64,000 nt of DNA from Elioraea sp. GTDB taxonomy: Bacteria > Pseudomonadota > Alphaproteobacteria > Acetobacterales > Acetobacteraceae. The stretch's first letter is position 1. Each line of letters starts with the position of its first letter. The position numbers and the translations under genes were made by a program. The stretch spans positions 3,174-67,173 of the forward strand of contig NZ_JBHYDW010000006.1 in NCBI RefSeq assembly GCF_051860475.1, written 5' to 3'. This document shows, one piece after another, positions 20,226-49,276 of the stretch. The notes under the pieces were generated by a model. It searched no databases and had not been told where the DNA came from. It saw nothing but the letters and a program-made list of their open reading frames with translations.

Positions 20226-20948
20226 ATGACACACTGGCCCGGCCCCGCCGCCCGTTTCGATCGCCCGCCGCGCCGCGCCGTGGCCAGACCGCTCCGCGGC
20301 GTCCTTCCCGCCAGAAGCGACGCCGCGACCGAACCCTGCCTCGACGTCGACCGCCTGCCGCCGGGCTGGCTCGCCGAGGCCCGGCCCCGCCGCGACGGCC
20401 CGGCCCCGGCGGCACTGCGCCGCGCGATCGAGATCCTGCTCGCCGGCCTGGTGCTCGCCCTCGCCGCCCCGCTGCTCGCGGCCGCGGCGCTGAGCGCCCG
20501 GCTCGACGGTGCCGGCCCGGTGCTGGCGCGCGTGCCGCGGGTCGGCCGGCGCGGCCGCCCCTTCACGCTCTACCGCCTGCGCGTGCGCGCGGGCGGTCTC
20601 GGCCGGCTGCTGCGGCTCTGCCGGATCGAGGACGTGCCCCAGCTCGTCAACGTGCTGAAAGGCGAGATGGCCCTGGTCGGGCCCCGCCCCGAGGCGCCCG
20701 AGGCGGCCGCCGAGCACGCCCGCTGGATCGTCCGCTGGCGCGACCGCGAGGCGGTGCGCCCCGGCGTCACCGGCTGGGCCCAGGTGCACCAGGCCGTCAC
20801 CCATCTCGATCGCGGCGGCTCGCTCGCCCAGGCCCGCCGCATGCTCGGTTACGACCTCTACTATGTGCGGCACCAGAGCCTCGGCCTGGATCTCCGGATC
20901 CTGCTCGCCACGCTCCGCGTCGTGCTGCTCCAGGAGGAGGCGCGCTAG
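20226..20948 (+). CDS. Polyprenyl-phosphate sugar phosphotransferase, C-terminal domain only (Bac_transf), 240 aa
   Basis: GGAGG RBS before ATG 20226. EDVPQLVNVLKGEMALVGPRPE, VRPGVTGWAQV, YDLYYVRHQSLGLDLRILLATLRVVL. Confidence 0.85.
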   Translation: MTHWPGPAARFDRPPRRAVARPLRGVLPARSDAATEPCLDVDRLPPGWLAEARPRRDGPAPAALRRAIEILLAGLVLALAAPLLAAAALSARLDGAGPVLARVPRVGRRGRPFTLYRLRVRAGGLGRLLRLCRIEDVPQLVNVLKGEMALVGPRPEAPEAAAEHARWIVRWRDREAVRPGVTGWAQVHQAVTHLDRGGSLAQARRMLGYDLYYVRHQSLGLDLRILLATLRVVLLQEEAR

Positions 20949-20970
20949 CCTTGGCGTCCGCACCCGCGCC

Positions 20971-23043
20971 ATGACCGCCTCCGTCGTCCTGCACACCGGC
21001 GCCGCGGCGTTCTGCCTGTTCTGGGCCGCGCTCGTGCTGGCGGCCGGACGCGGCCGGATCGCGCTCGCGCTCGCCGCCGCCTGCGGGGCGGGCGCGCTCT
21101 GGGCCGTCACCGTCGCGTTCCTGCCCGACTGGCCGCTCGACGGGGTGTCGGGCGCGGCCGACGTGCTGCGCTCGGCGGTCTGGTTCGCGGTGCTGCTGGT
21201 GCTCTATCGCCGCACCGGCGGCGCCGAGGTCGCCCCGGCCATGCGTCGCTTCGCGGTCGCCGGCCTCCTGCTCGTGCTGGTCGGCTTCGCCGCGCTGCTG
21301 CCCGGCCCGACCGCGGATCTCGTCCTGCCCACGCTCGGCTCGCCTGCCCTGCTCGCCCGGCTCGGGCTCGCGCTCGTCACCGTGCTGCTCGCCGAGAACA
21401 TCTACCGCAACGCCGACGAGGCGGCACGCTGGCACGTCAACCTGCCCTGCATCGCGCTCGGCGGGCTCGCCGCCTTCGACGTGCTTGTCTGTGCCGACGC
21501 GGTGCTGGCGCGCGCCTTCTCGCCGCCGCTGCTCGACGCGCGCGCGGTCGTCATGGCGCTTGCGATGCCGCTGCTCGCGCTCGCCGCGGTGCGCGACCGC
21601 CGCTGGCGCCGCCAGCTGCCGGTCAGCCGCGCGGTGGTGTTCCATGGCGCGACCCTGGTGGTGGGGGGCGTATTCCTGCTCGGCATCGGGCTCGCCGGCG
21701 AGGCGGTGCGCCATCTCGGCGCCGACTGGGGCCGCGCGGTGCAGATCAGCCTGCTCGCCGCCGCCGCCCTCGCGCTGCTGGTTGCCGCCTCCTCGCAGTC
21801 GGCGCGCTCGCGGCTGCGCCGGCAGATCGTCGACAACTTCTTCACCGCAAGGCACGACTATCGGCGGGAATGGCTGCGCACCGTCGCCACTCTCTCCGCC
21901 GCCGATGCCGAGGCGCCGGCCGCCTTGCGCACGATCCGCGCGATTGCCGATCCGGTGGACAGCCCGGCCGGGCTGCTGCTGCTCCGCGAGGAGACCGAGG
22001 GCGCGCCACGCTTCGCCTGGGCACAGTCCTGGAACTGCCCCGATGCGCCGCTCGCCCTCGGCGCCGAGCATCCGCTGCTGCCGCTGCTGCGCGACGGCAC
22101 CTGGATCGCCGAACTCGGCGAGGCGACGCCGGCGGACCTCGCCCGCGCCTATGGCGCGCTCTGGATCGCCGTGCCGCTCCTGCACCATCGCGAGGGGCTC
22201 GCCGGCATCGTGCTGCTCGCCCCGCCGCGCGCCCCCTTCCCGCTCGACGGCGAGACCTTCGATCTCTTGCGCACGCTCGGCCGCGAGGTGGCGATGTTCC
22301 TCGCCGAGCGGCGCGCGGCCGAGCGGCTGGCCGAGAGCCGCAAGCTCGCCGAATACGCCAAGCGCTTCGCCTTCGTCGCGCACGACGTCAAGACCGTCTC
22401 GCACCAGCTGAGCCTGCTGCTCGCGAACGCCGAGGACCACATGCAGGACCCCGAGTTCCAGCGGGACGTGCTGCTGACGGTGCGCGCCGCCACCGACCGG
22501 ATCAACACCCTGATCGCGCGGCTGCGCCAGCCCGAGGAGGAGGCCGCCCCGGCGCGCGCCGAGCCCGCGCATCGCGTGGCTCCGGCGGCGCGGCTCGCCG
22601 CGCTCGCCGCCCCCCGTCAGAGCCGCGTGATCGTCGAGCCCGGGGACGATCCGGGCCTTGCCGCGATCGGGGCGGAAGCGTTCGATGCCGCGGTGACGCA
22701 TCTCATCAACAACGCCATCGACGCATCGCCCATGCATGAGCCGGTCCGCATTGCGCTGCGCCGCGACGGCGCCCGCATCGTCATCGACATCGCCGATCGC
22801 GGACCGGGAATGAGCCCAGGGTTCGTGCGCGACGTGCTGTTCCGCCCGCTCGGTACCTCCAAGGCGAAGGGCAGCGGCATCGGCGCCTGGCAGGCGCGCG
22901 AGCTGCTGCGCGAGGCGGGCGGGGATCTGGCGGTGCTGACGCAGCCGGGCGAAGGCACCACGATGCGCCTGACCCTGCCGCGCGCCGAGGCGGACGCCGC
23001 CGCCGCCCCGGCGGCGCAGGAGCAGGTGCGGAGGTGCGCATGA
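20971..23043 (+). CDS. prsK: PEP-CTERM system sensor histidine kinase PrsK, 690 aa
   Basis: Multi-TM N-terminus, GAF-like region, FAFVAHDVK H-box, NNAIDAS, DRGPGMS, GSGIGAWQAREL. Confidence 0.93.
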   Translation: MTASVVLHTGAAAFCLFWAALVLAAGRGRIALALAAACGAGALWAVTVAFLPDWPLDGVSGAADVLRSAVWFAVLLVLYRRTGGAEVAPAMRRFAVAGLLLVLVGFAALLPGPTADLVLPTLGSPALLARLGLALVTVLLAENIYRNADEAARWHVNLPCIALGGLAAFDVLVCADAVLARAFSPPLLDARAVVMALAMPLLALAAVRDRRWRRQLPVSRAVVFHGATLVVGGVFLLGIGLAGEAVRHLGADWGRAVQISLLAAAALALLVAASSQSARSRLRRQIVDNFFTARHDYRREWLRTVATLSAADAEAPAALRTIRAIADPVDSPAGLLLLREETEGAPRFAWAQSWNCPDAPLALGAEHPLLPLLRDGTWIAELGEATPADLARAYGALWIAVPLLHHREGLAGIVLLAPPRAPFPLDGETFDLLRTLGREVAMFLAERRAAERLAESRKLAEYAKRFAFVAHDVKTVSHQLSLLLANAEDHMQDPEFQRDVLLTVRAATDRINTLIARLRQPEEEAAPARAEPAHRVAPAARLAALAAPRQSRVIVEPGDDPGLAAIGAEAFDAAVTHLINNAIDASPMHEPVRIALRRDGARIVIDIADRGPGMSPGFVRDVLFRPLGTSKAKGSGIGAWQARELLREAGGDLAVLTQPGEGTTMRLTLPRAEADAAAAPAAQEQVRRCA

Positions 23044-24461
23044 GCAAGCCGAAGCTCCTGGTGGTCGAGGACGATCCCGCGCTCTGCGCCCAGTACAAGT
23101 GGGGCTTCCCGGCCTGGCGCGTGCTGATCGCGAATGATCGCGTCGAGGCCGAAGCGGTCGCGCGGCGCGAGCAACCCGCCGTGGTGCTGCTCGATCTCGG
23201 CCTGCCGCCCGACGCGGAGGGCGTGGCCGAGGGGTTCGCGGCGCTCGAGACGCTGCGCCGGCTCGCGCCGACCATGCCGGTGGTGGTGTCCTCGGGCCAG
23301 GACCACCGCGAGAACATGCTGCGCGCGATCGCGCTCGGCGCCTACGATTTCTGCGAGAAGCCGGCCGACCTGGCGCTGCTCCGCACCGTGCTCGACCGGG
23401 CGCTGCGCCTGCGCGAGCTCGAGGAGGAGAACCTCCGTCTCGCCGCCCAGCCCCGCCCCTCGCCGATCCGCGACCTCCTCACCGGCGACGAGGGGATGCT
23501 GAAGGTCTGCCGCACGGTGGAACGGCTCGCCTCCGTATCGGTGCCGGTGCTGCTGCTCGGCGAATCCGGCACCGGCAAGGAGGCGCTCGCGCGCGCGCTG
23601 CACGAGATGGGCACGCGCGCGGCGAAGCCCTTCATCCCGATCAACGCCGCCGCGATCCCCGAGACGCTGCTCGAGGCCGAGCTGTTCGGCCACGAGAAGG
23701 GCGCCTTCACCGGTGCGGTGCGCCAGGTGATCGGCAAGATCGAGCAGGCCAACGGCGGCACGCTCTTTCTCGACGAGATCGGCGATCTGCCCGGCAACCT
23801 GCAGGCCAAGCTGCTGCGCTTCCTCCAGGAGCAGATGATCGAGCGGATCGGCGGGCGGAGCCAGATCAAGGTCGATGTGCGCTTCGTCTCAGCGACCAAC
23901 CAGCCGCTCGAGCAGCAGGTCGAGGAGGGCCGCTTCCGCGCCGACCTGCTCTACCGGCTGAACGCCGTGACCGTGCGCATCCCGCCCTTGCGCGAGCGCG
24001 GCGAGGACGCGGCCCTGCTCGCGCGCGCCTTCCTCGCCCGCGACGGGCGCGAGTTCGGCCGCCGCTTCCGCGGCTTCGATGCCTCCGCCCTCGCCGCGAT
24101 CGCGGCCCATCCCTGGCCCGGCAATGTGCGCGAGCTGATGAACCGGGTGCGCCGTGCGGCGCTGATGGCCGAGGGCCCGCTGGTCAACGCCGAGGATCTC
24201 GAACTCGCCGCTCCCGATCGCGCCGCGATCGCCGCGCAGGAGGCCGACAGCGAGGTCGATCTCGATCTGCGCGCCGCGCGGATGCGCGCCGAGCGCGAGA
24301 CGATCGAGCGCGCGCTTGCGCGCAGCCAGGGCAGCCTCACCGCCGCCGCGCGGCTGCTCGGGATCAGCCGCCCCACCCTCTACACCCTGCTCGATACGCA
24401 CGGGATCCCGCTGCCGCGCCCCGAGGCTGGCAGCCCCGCCGCGTCCATCGACGCCGTCTGA
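23040..24461 (+). CDS. prsR: PEP-CTERM-box sigma-54 response regulator PrsR, 473 aa
   Basis: Receiver domain (LLDLGLPPD), AAA+ [29 protein letters not shown], Fis-type HTH. Confidence 0.95.
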
Positions 24462-24473
24462 CGGAGACACGCC

Positions 24474-27293
24474 ATGGCACGACCCCTCACCACGCGGATT
24501 GCCGCCCCCCTCGCCTTCGCCGCCGCGCTGATGCTGGCAGTGCCGGCCGACGCCTCGGTCGACCGCGCCCGCGCGGCGCAGCAGCGGGGCGACCTGCGCG
24601 CGGCCCAGATCGAGTTCCGCAACGCCGTGCGCGCCAGTCCGGACGATCCCGCGCTGCGGGCGGCGCTCGCCCGGGCGAGCCTCGATCTCGGCGACGGCGA
24701 CACCGCCGAGAAGGAGGCGCGCGCCGCGCTCGAGCGCGGCTACGACCGCGCGGACGGCACCGCGCTGCTGCTGCGCGCCTACATGACGCTGCGCCGCTTC
24801 GAGGAGATCCTGCGGGAGTTCCCGATGCAGGAGGGCCAGGTGCCGAACGCGGTCGCGGGCCAGGTCGCGGCCGGACGGAGCATGGCCTATCTCGCGCTGA
24901 ACCGGCGCGAGGACGCTGCCCGCGCCGCCGCCGATGCGGTCCGCCTCGCCCCCGACCGGGTCGATCCGCAGCTCGCCGCCGCCACCGTCGCCGCCGTGGC
25001 CGGCGACCGCGACGCCTCCGAGGCTGCGGTGGACCGCGCGCTCGCGATCGAGCCCGACAACGCCGACGCGTTGCTGCGCAAGGGCGGATTCCAGTTCGAG
25101 CGCGGCCAGCTCGCCGAGGCCTCCACCACCTTCGCCCGGGTGCTGGAGCTCGCGCCCGGCCATATCCCCGCCCGGCTGCGCCGCGGCGAGGTGCTGCTGC
25201 GCATGGGCAACGACGCCGAGGCGCGCCAGGAGATCGACCGGGTGCTGCGGCTCGCGCCAAGCGCGGTGCTGGGGATCTACATGAGCGCGATGCTGCACGG
25301 CCGCGCGCAGGACTGGCCGGCGGCGGACGAGGCGCTGCAGCGGATCCAGGGCCAGCTGCCCAACATCCCCGACGGGCTGTTGCTGTTCGCCACCGTCAAG
25401 CGCGCGCTCAACCAGCTCGAGCAGGCCGAGGACGCGGCGCGCCGCCATGTCGCGCGCCGGCCCGAGGATCCGCGCGGCGCCAAGCTGCTCGCCACGCTCG
25501 AGCTGCAGCGCGGCGCCGCCGATGCCGCCGCCGGCACGCTCGACCGGCTGGCGCAGCGCGGCGCGGCGGACGCCGAGGCCTATGACCTGCTGGGCCGCGC
25601 GCATGCGCAGATGGGACGCCGGCAGGAGGCGCTCGACGCGTTCAGCAAGGCATCCGAGCTCGCCGCCGACAATGCCGGCGTGCTCGCCCGGCTGGCGGTC
25701 GCCCGCCTCGCCACCGGCGACGCGGGCGGCGCGCAGCAGGCGGCGGAGGCGGCCCTCGCGCGCAACCCCGACCAGGCCGGCGCGCGCGAGATCCTGGCAT
25801 CCGCGGCACTCGCCCGCGGCGATCTCGCGGCCGCCTCGGCCCAGCTGGAGCGGCTCGGCCCGGCCGCGCGCGGCGGCGAGCTCGCCGGCGTGCTGGACGG
25901 CACGATCCGGGTGGTGCGGCTCGACATCGAAGGCGGCAAGCAAGCCTTCGAGGCGGTGCTGCGCGACCATCCGAACAGCGTGCGGGCGCGGCTCGGGCTT
26001 GCCCGCGTCGCCGCCATGCAGGGCGATCTGGAACGTGCCGAGCGGCTGTTCGGCGAGGTGCTGGAGCGCGAGCCGGGCAACCCGGAGGCGCTCGCGCGGC
26101 TCTCCGCGGCGGTGATAACCGGGGGGCCGCGCGCGGCGTCCTCGCGCGCCGTGCTGGAGACGGCGAACGCCGCCCAGCCCGGCGATCCCGCGCTCGCGAT
26201 GGCGCTCGGCACGGTGCTGGTGCGCGCCGGCGAGCCGGCCAAGGCGGCCGCCGTGCTGGATGCGCCCGCGTTCCGCGAGCGCCGCCGCGAGACCCGCCAC
26301 CTGCTGCTGCTGGCCGAGGCGCGCGCCGCCGCCGAGCAGCCGCGGGAGGCCGAGGAGGCCGCGCGCGCGGCGATGGCGCAGGACCCGGACAATCCGCTCG
26401 CCCGCCGCGTGGTGGCGGGGCTGCTCCTGCGCGCGAACGATCCGCGCGCCGCCGAGACGGTGCTTGAGCAGGGGCTGCGCAGCCGGCCGACCGATGCGCT
26501 GCTGCAGCAATCCCTGATCCAGACGGTGCGTGAGGGCCGCGGCCTCGACGCGGCGCTCGAGGTCGCCGACCGGCTGGCGCGCCAGGAGGCCACCCGCCCG
26601 ACCTCGCTGACGCTGCGCGGGGACCTGCTGATGGGCGCGGAGCGGTTCGAGGAGGCCGCCGCCGCCTACGCCGCCGCCTACCAGCAGGCGCCGTCGGGCG
26701 TGCTCGCGCAGCGGCGCGCGGCGGCCCTGCAGCGGCTCGGCAGGACGGACCAGGTCATGGCCGCGCTCGCCGCCTGGCTCGAGCGCCAGCCGGGCGACAC
26801 GCCGATCCTGGCGCTGCTGTCGCAGATCGAGATCGGCACCGGCAAGACCGTCGAGGCCGAGCGGCGGCTCGTGCAGGTGGTCGCGGCGCGGCCCGAGGAC
26901 GCGGTGTCGCTGAACAACCTCGCCTGGCTGATGCAGGCGCGCAGCACCCCCGAGACGGCCGAGGGCCGGGCCACGCTCGCGCAGGCGCGGCAGTACGCCG
27001 AGCGCGCCTACTACCTCGCGCCCTCGGCGGAGACCGCCGACACGCTCGGCTGGATCCTGGCGCGCACCGGCGAGGCCGCGCGCGCGGTGCCGCTGCTGCG
27101 CCAGGCGGCAGCGGCGTCGATGGCGCGGCAGCGTCCGGATGCCTCGATGTTCTACCGCTACGCGGTGGCGCTCGACGCGACCGGGCAGCGCGAGGAGGCG
27201 CGGCGCGTGATCGAGCCGGTGGTCGCCTCCACCGCGCAGTTCCCCGAGCGGGCAGAAGCCGAGCGGCTGCTCGCGCGGCTGCGCGGGGGCTGA
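24474..27293 (+). CDS. prsT: PEP-CTERM system TPR protein PrsT, 939 aa
   Basis: AAQIEFRNAV, many TPR repeats, LNNLAWL...ADTLGWIL, position after prsR. Confidence 0.9.
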   Translation: MARPLTTRIAAPLAFAAALMLAVPADASVDRARAAQQRGDLRAAQIEFRNAVRASPDDPALRAALARASLDLGDGDTAEKEARAALERGYDRADGTALLLRAYMTLRRFEEILREFPMQEGQVPNAVAGQVAAGRSMAYLALNRREDAARAAADAVRLAPDRVDPQLAAATVAAVAGDRDASEAAVDRALAIEPDNADALLRKGGFQFERGQLAEASTTFARVLELAPGHIPARLRRGEVLLRMGNDAEARQEIDRVLRLAPSAVLGIYMSAMLHGRAQDWPAADEALQRIQGQLPNIPDGLLLFATVKRALNQLEQAEDAARRHVARRPEDPRGAKLLATLELQRGAADAAAGTLDRLAQRGAADAEAYDLLGRAHAQMGRRQEALDAFSKASELAADNAGVLARLAVARLATGDAGGAQQAAEAALARNPDQAGAREILASAALARGDLAAASAQLERLGPAARGGELAGVLDGTIRVVRLDIEGGKQAFEAVLRDHPNSVRARLGLARVAAMQGDLERAERLFGEVLEREPGNPEALARLSAAVITGGPRAASSRAVLETANAAQPGDPALAMALGTVLVRAGEPAKAAAVLDAPAFRERRRETRHLLLLAEARAAAEQPREAEEAARAAMAQDPDNPLARRVVAGLLLRANDPRAAETVLEQGLRSRPTDALLQQSLIQTVREGRGLDAALEVADRLARQEATRPTSLTLRGDLLMGAERFEEAAAAYAAAYQQAPSGVLAQRRAAALQRLGRTDQVMAALAAWLERQPGDTPILALLSQIEIGTGKTVEAERRLVQVVAARPEDAVSLNNLAWLMQARSTPETAEGRATLAQARQYAERAYYLAPSAETADTLGWILARTGEAARAVPLLRQAAAASMARQRPDASMFYRYAVALDATGQREEARRVIEPVVASTAQFPERAEAERLLARLRGG

Positions 27294-45746: not shown

Positions 45747-45838
45747 ATGATGCGGCGCGGCCCGCTGCTGGTCCGTCCCCGATCACGCTGGACGAGGCCG
45801 AGGCCGCCCTCGCGGCCTCCCGTGACCGGCCGGCGTGA
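45747..45838 (+). pseudogene. Truncated/frameshifted VapB-like antitoxin tail
   Basis: MMRRGPLLV in one frame joins PITLDEAEAALAASRDRPA* in another. The stop overlaps the GTG of the PIN gene. Confidence 0.45.
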
Positions 45839-46302
45839 GCGCGCCGGCCGGACTGCTCGACAGCACCGTCGTCATCGCCTGCCTCGCCGAGGCGCACGAG
45901 CACCACGCCCCTTCGCTCACGCTGCTGGCCGAGGGGAACCCGCGGCGCTACGCCGTCGGCGCGCACAGCTACGCCGAGGCCTATGCGACGCTGACCCGGA
46001 CCGGACCGCCGGCACCGTTCCGCTTCACCGCTGCCGAGGCCTGGGCGGCGCTGCAAAGCCTGCGCGCCGTGACGGCGCTTGTCGGACTCACGCCGGCGCA
46101 GGGCTTCGATGTCGTGCGCGCCTATGCGGCGACGGACGGCATCGGCGCCCGGCTGTACGACGTCCTGATCGGACAGGTGGCGGTCGTCCATGGCATCCCG
46201 CTCCTGATCACCTGGAACACGCGCCACAGGACCGGGCTGTTCCCGGCCCTGACCGTGGCGAGCCCGGCGGAGCTTCTGGCGGACCGGCCGCGGCGGCGGT
46301 GA
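45835..46302 (+). CDS. vapC: PIN-domain protein (VapC-like toxin)
   Basis: LLDSTVVIA, YAEAYATLTR, LYDVLI, ITWNTRH: the PIN acidic active-site pattern. Confidence 0.85.
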   Translation: MSAPAGLLDSTVVIACLAEAHEHHAPSLTLLAEGNPRRYAVGAHSYAEAYATLTRTGPPAPFRFTAAEAWAALQSLRAVTALVGLTPAQGFDVVRAYAATDGIGARLYDVLIGQVAVVHGIPLLITWNTRHRTGLFPALTVASPAELLADRPRRR

Positions 46303-46325
46303 CGGGGCCGGCGCGGGCGCGCGGG

Positions 46326-46529
46326 TGTAAAGTTTTCCGACGCCTTCCCCCGCCCGACCCCGCCGGGAGGCTTGCCGGCGGCGGTGGAAACCGAGGCTTT
46401 TCCTGCCTCTCCGCGGGGCCGGGGGGGGTGGGCCGAGGAACCGCGTCGGAAAACTTTACGGTCGGGGTCAGGAGCCCACCCCACCCAGCCGCTAACCCGC
46501 CGGAATCCGCCACTGGCACATGCATTGCT
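46326..46529 (+). promoter_or_regulatory. Two PEP-CTERM boxes plus a sigma-54 promoter
   Basis: TGTAAAGTTTTCCGACG (46326-46342, inverted), CGTCGGAAAACTTTACG (46444-46460) and TGGCACATGCATTGCT (46514-46529). Confidence 0.85.
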
Positions 46530-46595
46530 TCTATGCGTGGTGAGCGTGGCGCCGGGGGCGCTACCCAGGGGACACGGTTCCGAAAGGACAGGACG

Positions 46596-47171
46596 ATGAG
46601 CAAGTTCAGGACAGCGCTTCTGGCCGGTGCGATGGTGGTGGGCCTCGGCGCGGCGGCCGATGCGGCGCCGATCACGGGCGGCATCAGCTTGGCGGGCGGG
46701 TTCACGCCCATCGACGGCTTCAGCGCTCCGACCACCCTCGCTGCCGCGACGGGCATCGACTTCGGCGCGAGCTTCGCAACCGGGGCAAGCGGTACTCTCG
46801 CCTCGTTCGGCAGTGTCAGCACCGCGGCCGGTACGCTGACCATGACGGACTTCCAGTTCGTCTCGGTGCCGCCGCCGGTCTCGCCGCTGTTCACCGCGTT
46901 CGACGGCGTCGCCACGCTGAGCTTCGACCTCAACACGGTCAGCATTATCAGCCAGAACAGTTCAACTCTGCAGCTCAGCGGGACCGGTATCCTGAGCCTG
47001 CCTGGCTTCGATCCGACACCCGGCGACTGGGTCCTCACTGCCAACTCGCTGGGGGGCACGTTCTCCTGGAGTTCGAGCACCGCCGCGGTCATCCCCGAGC
47101 CCGCCTCGCTGGCGCTGCTCGGCATGGGCCTGCTCGGCCTCGGCTTCGCCGCCCGCCGGCGCGCCGCCTGA
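46596..47171 (+). CDS. PEP-CTERM surface protein, 191 aa
   Basis: MSKFRTALLAGAMVVGLGAAADA signal peptide. C-terminal IPEPASLALLGMGLLGLGFAARRRAA. Confidence 0.95.
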   Translation: MSKFRTALLAGAMVVGLGAAADAAPITGGISLAGGFTPIDGFSAPTTLAAATGIDFGASFATGASGTLASFGSVSTAAGTLTMTDFQFVSVPPPVSPLFTAFDGVATLSFDLNTVSIISQNSSTLQLSGTGILSLPGFDPTPGDWVLTANSLGGTFSWSSSTAAVIPEPASLALLGMGLLGLGFAARRRAA

Positions 47172-47219
47172 ACCTGGGCTAGCCTTCCGATCGGGGCGGC
47201 CCCGTGCCGCTCCACCAAG

Positions 47220-47253
47220 GCAGCGGTCCCGCAAGGGACCGCTGCTTTCGTTT
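47220..47253 (+). terminator. Intrinsic terminator
   Basis: gcagcggtccc-gcaa-gggaccgctgc-tttcgttt. Confidence 0.88.
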
Positions 47254-47269
47254 GCGCGCCCCGTCGGGG

Positions 47270-47418
47270 CGTCGGAAAACTTTACATCCCCAGGCTTCCC
47301 TGGCGGCGGCAGGCCCGCCCGGCTTCGGATCGTGTCGGCGGATTTTACAGTCCAGTGTCACGGACGGACGGCCAGGCCCACAACCCCTTGAAATGCTGAC
47401 ACTGGCACGGCCATTGCT
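47270..47418 (+). promoter_or_regulatory. Two PEP-CTERM boxes plus a sigma-54 promoter, with no downstream protein gene
   Basis: CGTCGGAAAACTTTACA (47270-47286), TGTCGGCGGATTTTACA (47333-47349) and TGGCACGGCCATTGCT (47403-47418). Confidence 0.85.
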
Positions 47419-47428
47419 GGATCGTGAC

Positions 47429-47532
47429 CGGCGGCGCAAGGCCGCAAGCCCGGCTCTCGGGCGTTTCCGGGGTGGTCGGGGGGCTACCCCGTGACGAGGC
47501 AGCGGTCCCGCAAGGGGCCGCTGCTTGTGTCT
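47429..47532 (+). ncRNA. Candidate sigma-54/PrsR-dependent small RNA (~100 nt, 4 hairpins)
   Basis: Predicted +1 near 47429. Hairpins at 47431-47445, 47448-47462 and 47469-47490, then a terminator at 47499-47532. No RBS or ATG ORF inside. Confidence 0.5.
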
Positions 47533-47545
47533 GGGCGCCACGCGC

Positions 47546-47672
47546 TTCTCCCTCTCCCGCCTGGGCGGGAGATGGTCGGGGTGAGGGTGGGAAGCGTTGC
47601 AAACGTCCGTTGGCGGGCTCTCGGCGCCAGCCCCCTCACCCAACCCTCTCTCCCGCCTGGTCGGGGAAAGGG
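47546..47672. repeat. Inverted pair of REP-like palindromic elements
   Basis: ccctctcccgcctgggcgggagatggtcggggtgaggg (about 47549-47587) and ccccctcacccaaccctctctcccgcctggtcggggaaaggg (47631-47672) are mutually inverted. A related hairpin lies at 63399-63445. Confidence 0.7.
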
Positions 47673-47745
47673 CACATGCGATCACCCTGGCCATACCCCC
47701 AACCCCCGACAGGTTCCGCCGGCCGCGGCACACGCGGCTCGTGTG

Positions 47746-47830
47746 TGTCAGGAAATCTTACACGGCAGACGACTGCACGCTGGGCGTGTAGCTGAATGTC
47801 CCAGTTTTGTTGACTTGGCCCGTCATTTGC
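47746..47830 (+). promoter_or_regulatory. PEP-CTERM box plus sigma-54 promoter
   Basis: TGTCAGGAAATCTTACA (47746-47762) and TGGCCCGTCATTTGC (47816-47830). Confidence 0.82.
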
Positions 47831-47894
47831 ACATCGGCTCCCGTCTCCGGCTGCGGTCCACCCGCGGCCGCCACCCGACCCGACAGGAGCTCCC

Positions 47895-48503
47895 GTGCGC
47901 CAGATCCGATCCCTCCTTCTCGCCGGCGCGGTCCTCGCGGCCTCCGCCACCGCCGCCGTCGCCGCGCCGATCTCCGGCTCGATCGGGATGGCGTTCCAGT
48001 TCCAGGCCAAGGACGCGGCCGGCGTGAACGTGCCGTTCAGCCAGGCGGTCGGGATCGACTTCCTCGGCCTGAACGCCGGCCCGGTCAGCAGCGGCAATTC
48101 CGGCATCTTCCTGGTCACCGGCTCGACCGGCGATCTCGCCGGAATCCCGATCGCCTCGGTCGGTACGATCACGGATCTGCCGTTCGCGCCCTTCGCCCCG
48201 ATCGCGGGGTTCTTCTCGGTCGGCGGGCTCTCCTTCGACCTCGCGCAGCTCTGGATCACCACCCAGACCGACAACACCCTCGGGCTGATGGGCCGCGGCA
48301 CGCTGATGCTCGCCGGCTTCGACGACACCCTCGGCACCTGGGCGTTCAGCGGCAACACCGCGGGCGGCGCACTCACCGGCACCTTCAGCTGGAGCGCCGA
48401 TGCCGCTCCGATCCCCGAACCCGCCGGGCTGGCCCTGTTCGGCCTCGCCCTGCTGGGGCTCGGGCTGGCGTGGCGGACGCAGCGCAGCACCGTCCACGCC
48501 TGA
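47895..48503 (+). CDS. PEP-CTERM surface protein, 202 aa (paralog of 46596-47171)
   Basis: AGGAG RBS and GTG start. Signal peptide. IPEPAGLALFGLALLGLGLAWRTQR. Shares LSFDL...Q...TL.L.G.G.L...GFD.T.G.W...N...TFSWS with the upstream paralog. Confidence 0.92.
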   Translation: MRQIRSLLLAGAVLAASATAAVAAPISGSIGMAFQFQAKDAAGVNVPFSQAVGIDFLGLNAGPVSSGNSGIFLVTGSTGDLAGIPIASVGTITDLPFAPFAPIAGFFSVGGLSFDLAQLWITTQTDNTLGLMGRGTLMLAGFDDTLGTWAFSGNTAGGALTGTFSWSADAAPIPEPAGLALFGLALLGLGLAWRTQRSTVHA

Positions 48504-48624
48504 TCGCCCCCTTCAGGGGAGGCGAGGCGGGGCCGGGCCTCGGGGGGGCGCCCGGCCCCGCTGATTCCAGGACGGGCCGCTGACCGCCCGGCCGTGCTAT
48601 GGGGAATCGGAAGGAGCCACTCGG

Positions 48625-48933
48625 ATGATTCCCGAGCTCGATCAGCACCGCGCTGAAATTGCCGAACTCTGCCGCCGCTTCGGCGTCCGTCGGCTCGATG
48701 TGGTCGGTTCGGCGGCGCGGGGGACGGATTTCGATCCCGTCCGGTCGGACGTGGATTTCCTCGTCGAGTATGTGCCCGAGGCCACCCCCTCGCTCGGCGC
48801 CTTCTTCGGCCTGCGTGACGCACTCGCCAAGCTGCTCGGCCGGCCGGTCGACCTCATCATGGCCTCCGGGCTGCGCAATCCGTTCGTACGCGCCGAGATG
48901 GAGCGCGCCCGTACCCCGCTCTATGCGGGCTGA
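48625..48933 (+). CDS. mntA: Minimal nucleotidyltransferase (MNT antitoxin)
   Basis: VRRLDVVGSAARG.DF....SDVDFLVEY, LLGRPVDL. Confidence 0.88.
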   Translation: MIPELDQHRAEIAELCRRFGVRRLDVVGSAARGTDFDPVRSDVDFLVEYVPEATPSLGAFFGLRDALAKLLGRPVDLIMASGLRNPFVRAEMERARTPLYAG

Positions 48934-49276
48934 CCCGCGGGGCCTGCTGTGGGACGCGCACGATGCGGCCGAGACGGTCGCGGTGTTCATCCGCGGCCAC
49001 ACGCTCGCGGAGTATCGAGCGGACCGGATGTTGCGCTCCGCCGTCGAGCGCCAGTGCGAGGTGGTCGGCGAGGCCCTGAACCGCCTGGCGAAGGTCGCTC
49101 CCGACCTTGCCGCCCGCGTCCCGGGCCTCGCGCAGGCCGTCGCGTTCCGCAATCTGCTGATCCACGGCTATGCGGTGGTTGACGATGCGGTCGTCTGGCG
49201 GACCGTGCAGCAGGATCTCCCCGTGCTCTCCCGCGATCTCGCCGCCCTGCTGGCCGAGACCGGCCCCCAGGGCTAG
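48923..49276 (+). CDS. hepT: HEPN/DUF86 RNase toxin (HepT-like), 117 aa
   Basis: AVERQCEVVGEAL, FRNLLIHGY (RNxxxH motif), VVWRTV. Overlaps the MNT stop. Confidence 0.88.
   Translation: MRADPRGLLWDAHDAAETVAVFIRGHTLAEYRADRMLRSAVERQCEVVGEALNRLAKVAPDLAARVPGLAQAVAFRNLLIHGYAVVDDAVVWRTVQQDLPVLSRDLAALLAETGPQG

Follow-up and report, generated by a model that had tools for sequence, protein, structure and literature searches.

A candidate PrsR/sigma-54-dependent non-coding RNA gene in a PEP-CTERM gene array of Elioraea

A regulatory unit of the kind that precedes PEP-CTERM protein genes was found without an open reading frame (ORF) behind it in a 64,000 nt stretch of DNA from Elioraea sp., referred to here as the window. 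Judged from its sequence and that of its relatives, this unit (unit 2) probably constitutes a gene of its own, giving rise to a structured ~100 nt non-coding RNA that would be PrsR/sigma-54-dependent, a reading held with somewhat better than even confidence. The ORF-less unit was also identified upstream of the orthologue of the next PEP-CTERM gene (gene 3) in eight further Elioraea-type genomes or contigs, giving nine loci with the source genome.

Regulatory units and predicted transcript

The region 45800-49000 was read and found to contain three tandem regulatory units on the + strand. The genes for the predicted regulators of the box (prsK, prsR and prsT) are all inside the window (20863..27293). 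The features are:

20863-23043, + strand: prsK (TIGR02916, 497 bits)
23034-24461, + strand: prsR (TIGR02915, 590 bits)
24474-27293, + strand: prsT (TIGR02917, 461 bits)
46444-46460, + strand: box of unit 1, with sigma-54 promoter TGGCACATGCATTGC at 46514
46596-47171, + strand: gene 1, PEP-CTERM protein ORF downstream of its own box (46444) and sigma-54 promoter (46514)
47219-47246, + strand: gene 1 terminator, which matches that of the RNA at 29/30 positions
47270-47286, + strand: distal PEP-CTERM box of unit 2, a predicted PrsR site, from sequence reading (CGTCGGAAAACTTTACA)
47333-47349, + strand: proximal PEP-CTERM box of unit 2, TGT-N11-ACA, from sequence reading (TGTCGGCGGATTTTACA)
47403-47417, + strand: sigma-54 promoter of unit 2 (P2), motif match to TGGCAC-N5-TTGC with -24 GG and -12 GC (TGGCACGGCCATTGC); no ORF follows
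47428-47535, + strand: predicted non-coding transcript, ~100-105 nt
47431-47445, + strand: hairpin 1 (GCGGC-GCAAG-GCCGC), with a sequence that corresponds to RRRKAA, the codons of a PEP-CTERM tail
47448-47462, + strand: hairpin 2 (GCCCG-GCUCU-CGGGC), with a pyrimidine-rich loop
47468-47491, + strand: hairpin 3 (CGGGGUGGUC-GGGG-GGCUACCCCG)
47498-47535, + strand: terminator hairpin (GGCAGCGGUCCC-GCAA-GGGGCCGCUGCU) and weak U-tail, from fold and alignment
47746-47762, + strand: box 3, in unit 3
47816-47830, + strand: promoter of unit 3 (P3), TGGCCC-N5-TTGC (TGGCCCGTCATTTGC), conserved in 9/9 loci
47895-48503, + strand: gene 3, PEP-CTERM protein ORF of unit 3 (202 aa), always directly downstream of the RNA

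The PrsK, PrsR, PrsT, RpoN and exosortase sequences all scored above the curated (NCBIfam) cut-offs, and rpoN, hfq and xrtA are encoded in the source genome. Dependence of a PEP-CTERM gene on RpoN has been demonstrated experimentally in Aquincola (PMC9850573). We infer that PrsR binds the boxes of unit 2 and would thereby activate its promoter.

When the sequence was read again, the two boxes of unit 2 (63 bp apart) and its promoter were found at the positions originally predicted, and the gap between the end of the box and the promoter was indeed that of both neighbouring genes, being 53 bp in units 1, 2 and 3 alike. The 15-mer core of the box (GTCGGAAAACTTTAC) occurs five times in the window versus 0.13 expected, and TGGC-N7-TTGC occurs six times versus 1.96 expected, with a box preceding four of the six. 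From GTCGG to TGGCA the distance measures 69 bp in units 1 and 3; the remaining PEP-CTERM genes of the source genome have 68-87 bp, with 77-79 bp in most. Approximately 10 units consisting of a box and a sigma-54 promoter were found genome-wide and, as a PEP-CTERM ORF follows every other unit with a box and a strong promoter, unit 2 is the sole orphan in this genome.

Units of this type were described by Haft et al. 2006 (PMC1569441), with a motif 1 that includes TTTACA and may be repeated and a sigma-54 motif 2 separated from it by 62.8 +/- 10.6 nt, and were located upstream of PEP-CTERM protein genes and of "a few" other genes. Unit 2 resembles the published units in its TTTACA box, which is repeated, in its 53-bp spacer, which falls inside the published range, and in its sigma-54 motif. 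However, it differs from them in that the ~100 nt it would drive are without an ORF in all nine loci.

The ends of the predicted RNA were placed from the promoter and the terminator. As sigma-54 promoters have their +1 12 nt downstream of the C in the -12 GC, the start of the RNA was placed at ~47428-47429. The original prediction of ~100 nt with three hairpins and a GCAA-loop terminator almost identical to that of gene 1 was borne out, with the ~105 nt folding at -73 kcal/mol (z = -4.25 relative to shuffles) and the two terminators sharing 29/30 positions. The arrangement of hairpin 2, hairpin 3 and terminator was predicted in all variants, and 97% of cells were paired in the alignment of the nine sequences.

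The hairpins differ in how much variation they tolerate. The stem of hairpin 1 is 5-10 bp long depending on the variant, and is remodelled in the variant L061 and absent in L066. The stem of hairpin 2 is present in 9/9 variants, with loss of the closing pair in L061 and a variable loop (GCUCU, ACUCU, CCUGC or CUUCACC). Hairpin 3, with the terminator, is the most conserved part, having 100% of cells paired in the nine variants and only two changes, both one-sided between G-U and G-C. The GC-rich 12-bp stem of the terminator carries a GCAA or GCGA (GNRA) loop, and is followed by UUUU(U/C) in five of the nine variants and by a weaker tail in the other four, among them the source genome (G000) and G005. 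A simple terminator scan did not call the terminator of the RNA in the source genome and, with such weak tails, G000 and G005 may allow read-through.

One part of the earlier structural argument was not upheld. The stems had been described as compensated, and the nine variants, which are very similar, contained no double-sided changes and five one-sided ones (G-U/G-C or A-U), a covariation signal no better than that of shuffles. The fold is thermodynamically strong, and what is conserved is the primary sequence, foremost that of hairpin 3 and the terminator. When Rfam was searched with the whole window at gathering thresholds and with 47200-47900 at E<=10, nothing was found on the element, and no second copy of it is present in the source genome except for the terminator of gene 1.

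Gene 1 scored 21.6 bits against TIGR02595 (cut-off 16) and is a paralogue of gene 3 with 43% amino acid identity. Gene 1 was found in the source genome only, with no orthologue in the other Elioraea genomes; its terminator nevertheless matches that of the RNA at 29 of 30 positions, which suggests local duplication or gene conversion of the terminator.

Several further observations were made on the DNA around genes 1 and 3. An ORF for a PIN-domain protein is located upstream of the array at 45835-46302. The slot downstream of gene 3 (48625-49276 in the window; 2680-3197 in L012; 2790-3442 in L064) holds toxin-antitoxin pairs that differ between strains, with an MntA-like nucleotidyltransferase and HepT in the source genome, and Phd/YefM and PIN in E. 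tepidiphila and several metagenome contigs. The 5' leader of gene 3 (47831-47894 in the window; 1866-1923 in L012) includes a hairpin, CCGGCG...CGCCGG, with a loop that differs between species, ahead of the Shine-Dalgarno region GAGCCGACAGGAG, which does not vary, and may itself be a conserved leader structure. A dispersed repeat of ~40 nt (ctccctctcccgcc...ggtgagggtggg) forms a long inverted repeat at 47545-47680 (core 47548-47590) and has at least 10 other copies in the source genome. It is found between the RNA terminator and box 3 in the source genome only, where the gap is 220 nt versus 83-119 nt in the three relatives measured.

Distribution and conservation

A DNA search of relatives detected the element at 83-84% identity in two congeners, and the ORF-less unit precedes the gene 3 orthologue in both E. 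tepidiphila (L012) and a metagenome-assembled genome (MAG; L011 plus L023). A fourth variant (L045/L046) was found using a pattern scan of metagenomes. Contigs with gene 3 orthologues were scanned using the covariance model R1, and this added L065, L064 and L072 (106-128 bits) as well as the divergent L061/L062 (50 bits) and L066 (56 bits). The carriers beside the source genome are E. tepidiphila DSM 17972, one uncultured Elioraea MAG and six metagenome or SRA-assembly contigs. In the MAG, an assembly break falls within the part of the RNA made up of hairpin 3 and terminator; the ends of L011 (contig C251) and L023 (C53) overlap by 56 nt and can be joined.

The RNA body is present in 9/9 variants, and a box located 68-69 bp from TGGCA[CT]-N5-TTGC was found in all eight variants for which upstream sequence is available, and in five of these another box lies farther upstream, 124-143 bp from the promoter. 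Relatives were searched for a conserved structure and for a PEP-CTERM ORF lying between this promoter and terminator, and the element was found to be conserved and the stretch from promoter to terminator to be ORF-less in all nine loci. The original proposal of a non-coding member of the regulon thus gains support from the ORF-less unit, box and promoter that are conserved across relatives, and this support is comparative in kind.

The R1 model identified the element in 3 of 10 Elioraea species genomes, precisely the three that carry gene 3. The element is absent from loci with gene 3 homologues of 51-58% identity (L067, L068 and L073), and a scan of ~150 other genomes of the family returned only weak GC-hairpin noise (<=36 bits). 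Among the genomes searched, the family is narrow, with no convincing match beyond Elioraea.

Conservation within the loci was compared in four species, and was highest in the RNA core, which is 94-98% identical. The spacer between box and promoter is 44-79% identical, the 10-12 nt that link TTGC to the core 33-55%, the DNA past the terminator 15-60%, and the region upstream of gene 3 63-78%. The coding sequence of gene 3 is 86-93% identical in the same species, and its four-fold sites 77-87%. When the seven close variants were considered, the RNA was 89-98% identical versus 69-88% for the four-fold sites of gene 3 (binomial p 5e-2 to 5e-11), and the flanking intergenic DNA was barely alignable in relatives. 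The conserved block begins 10-12 nt after the TTGC of the -12 element and ends at the terminator stem. As these limits coincide with the predicted +1 and the terminator, they form the pattern expected of a selected transcript.

In L061 and L066, which diverge most, the RNA is 70-78% identical, which is no higher than the four-fold sites. Both retain hairpin 3, the terminator, the stem of hairpin 2, the box and the promoter. With the body conserved above four-fold sites and flanks in the close variants, and the promoter and box retained, the comparisons indicate that the element is not evolving neutrally.

Origin and alternative explanations

The RNA appears to include the remains of a protein gene. 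Its 5' end (CGGCGGCGCAAGGCCGCC, C CGG CGG CGC AAG GCC GCC GGA) reads RRRKAA, the basic tail of a PEP-CTERM protein, with GGA replacing the stop codon, and this tail stretch makes up the first 18-21 nt. The neighbouring PEP-CTERM gene of the MAG (G001) ends in GCG CGG CGG CGC AAG GCT GCC TGA, a 20/21 match to the 5' end of the RNA. The best match in the source genome to the first 15 nt of the RNA is the exact end of a PEP-CTERM ORF on contig C129 (AARRRKAA*), with 17/18 positions shared. The score of this match is within the shuffle null (31 vs 27 +/- 2.8) and it is its position at an ORF end that makes the match telling; on score, the terminator match alone beats the null.

The 3' half of the RNA resembles the 3'UTRs of PEP-CTERM genes, in which a short CGGGG...CCCCG hairpin is followed by a GGCAGCGG...CCGCUGCC terminator, as at gene 1 (34.7 bits) and a gene in L065 (24 bits). 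As the 5' end corresponds to PEP-CTERM tail codons and the 3' half is like PEP-CTERM 3'UTRs, an origin by deletion is indicated, and the element is probably a deletion scar by origin that was later fixed and selected. A scar from deletion of a PEP-CTERM ORF had originally been set against function as the alternative. The scar probably holds as history, given the tail codons and the 3'UTR likeness, but the opposition does not, as this scar retains its enhancer and promoter intact and, in close variants, is conserved beyond four-fold sites.

It is distinctly unlikely that the scar is functionless, namely a dead PEP-CTERM gene with a promoter and 3' end that persist for want of time. The tail codons and the PEP-CTERM-like 3' half would be expected of such a remnant, and the narrow, young distribution and lack of covariation also fit. 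However, in the same genome pairs the adjacent non-coding DNA is 15-79% identical and four-fold sites are 69-88% identical against 89-98% for the RNA, the conservation has sharp edges at the predicted +1 and the terminator, and box, spacing and promoter are intact in 8/8 variants for which upstream sequence is available, including lineages in which gene 3 is only 76-80% identical. That the element instead codes for a small protein is almost certainly wrong. Two ORFs (47424-47795 and 47491-48027) overlap it, and are the only ORFs to do so, but both are GTG-started artefacts that run past the terminator into unconserved DNA. No credible ORF, ATG or ribosome-binding site (RBS) was found after the unit 2 promoter, in agreement with the original reading, and the indels among relatives are not multiples of three, with those of 1-3 nt between close variants sufficient to shift every frame, so that no reading frame stays unbroken. 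The small-protein reading was rejected because of these frame-shifting indels and the lack of an ATG or RBS.

The tight linkage of the element to gene 3 keeps alive a further reading, in which it serves gene 3 as a cis-acting leader or additional upstream promoter, and transcripts from P2 pass the hairpin at 47498-47525, or undergo attenuation there, and continue to 47895. In that case the conserved RNA would be part of a regulatory 5' leader instead of a free sRNA. The element is directly upstream of a gene 3 orthologue in 9/9 loci and is missing where only the 51-58% homologues exist, and the weak U-tract in G000 and G005, with a hairpin that the simple scan leaves uncalled, is as expected if transcription continued. 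However, gene 3 has its own P3 conserved in 9/9 loci, which in the source genome follows a box at the 53-bp gap seen in the other units, and the DNA between terminator and box 3, 83-220 nt long, shows no conservation, differs in length between loci and is interrupted by the dispersed repeat in the source genome. In five of the nine variants a proper UUUU(U/C) tail follows the GC-rich 12-bp stem; in addition, no alternative antiterminator pairing is evident and there is no excess complementarity to the gene 3 leader. Such a cis-acting role was considered improbable, and a role at the level of DNA, as an extra docking site for PrsR and sigma-54 (an activator sink or insulator) or a protein site over the hairpins, very improbable. 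Conservation of both strands of hairpin 3 and the terminator in primary sequence, beyond what pairing needs, would suit a DNA element, but a sink needs no conserved body of 100 nt with a terminator hairpin and U-tail on the promoter strand, and the conserved block begins at the predicted transcription start.

Proposed role and relation to known systems

Under the preferred reading of unit 2 as a stand-alone RNA gene, PrsR bound at one or two PEP-CTERM boxes would activate the sigma-54 promoter, and the RNA would be produced alongside the PEP-CTERM cargo genes. A tandem PEP-CTERM gene would have lost its coding body in an ancestor of a single Elioraea sub-clade, joining its promoter to the RRRKAA codons (the final ~20 nt of the ORF), the 3'UTR and the terminator, and the remnant would since have been retained by purifying selection. 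With low confidence, the RNA may be a riboregulator that is co-induced with the cargo and acts post-transcriptionally on the PEP-CTERM/EPS system.

A search for antisense targets in the source genome (blastn-short) gave only matches with E>=0.5, which is chance level, and RNAduplex comparison of the RNA with the cognate gene 3 leaders in the nine loci gave z values of -0.1 to +1.3, no better than shuffles. A 23/27 complementarity was seen between 47448-47474 of the RNA (hairpin 2 and linker) and 26945-26971 in the coding sequence of prsT, and is probably due to chance as E = 0.56 in the whole-genome search.

Hairpin 3 and the terminator hairpin are the invariant parts and form the type of 3' end found on PEP-CTERM mRNAs, and the antisense search gave no target. 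A 3'-end-binding protein (Hfq or an RNase, with the RNA as decoy or competitor) is therefore favoured over seed pairing, and our guess is that the RNA is recognised in this way. A more far-reaching idea, which we regard as doubtful, is that the RNA, sharing the PrsR enhancer and the terminal hairpins of cargo mRNAs, mimics their 3' ends and competes for Hfq or RNase, thereby setting the stability of cargo mRNA, and that PrsR regulons in several lineages may recurrently gut cargo genes into riboregulators.

The surface proteins under control of the PrsK/PrsR-sigma-54 system are of the PEP-CTERM/exosortase type, and bacteria such as those of activated sludge require them to form flocs and biofilms. 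In the searchable literature the PrsR regulon is given as protein genes only, with no RNA among its described members, and a conserved RNA output, if true, would add a post-transcriptional layer to the PrsK/PrsR system. A search of the same literature for Elioraea transcripts from this locus found none. As the element is present in a cultured type strain, E. tepidiphila DSM 17972, the prediction is directly testable.

Small RNAs are known to arise from decayed genes and 3'UTRs, either by exaptation of pseudogene remnants or as 3'UTR-derived sRNAs. The RNA described here is like these in that its body would derive from a former protein gene, of which it comprises the final codons, the 3'UTR and the terminator. 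However, it is neither processed from a live mRNA nor internally promoted in one, and would instead keep the enhancer-dependent promoter of the parent gene, joined straight to the 3' end. If so, it represents an unusually legible case of the birth of an sRNA gene, in which the body of a cargo gene was lost and an enhancer-dependent promoter was fused to the gene's own 3' end.

Among sRNAs that depend on an activator and sigma-54, the known examples are Qrr1-5 (activated by LuxO), GlmY (GlrR/QseF), CrcZ (CbrB) and NrsZ (NtrC). Unit 2 is not related to these in sequence or structure and has no Rfam match at E<=10; its RNA also does not include repeated GGA or A-rich protein-binding motifs, and its predicted activator is PrsR. 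What it shares with them is the architecture, in which activator sites lie ahead of a -24/-12 promoter and the transcript (here predicted) is short, structured and non-coding, ends in an intrinsic terminator and is subject to two-component co-regulation. Taken together, the comparisons indicate that unit 2 is a real, conserved and uncatalogued non-coding unit that would belong in the class of activator/sigma-54-dependent sRNAs.
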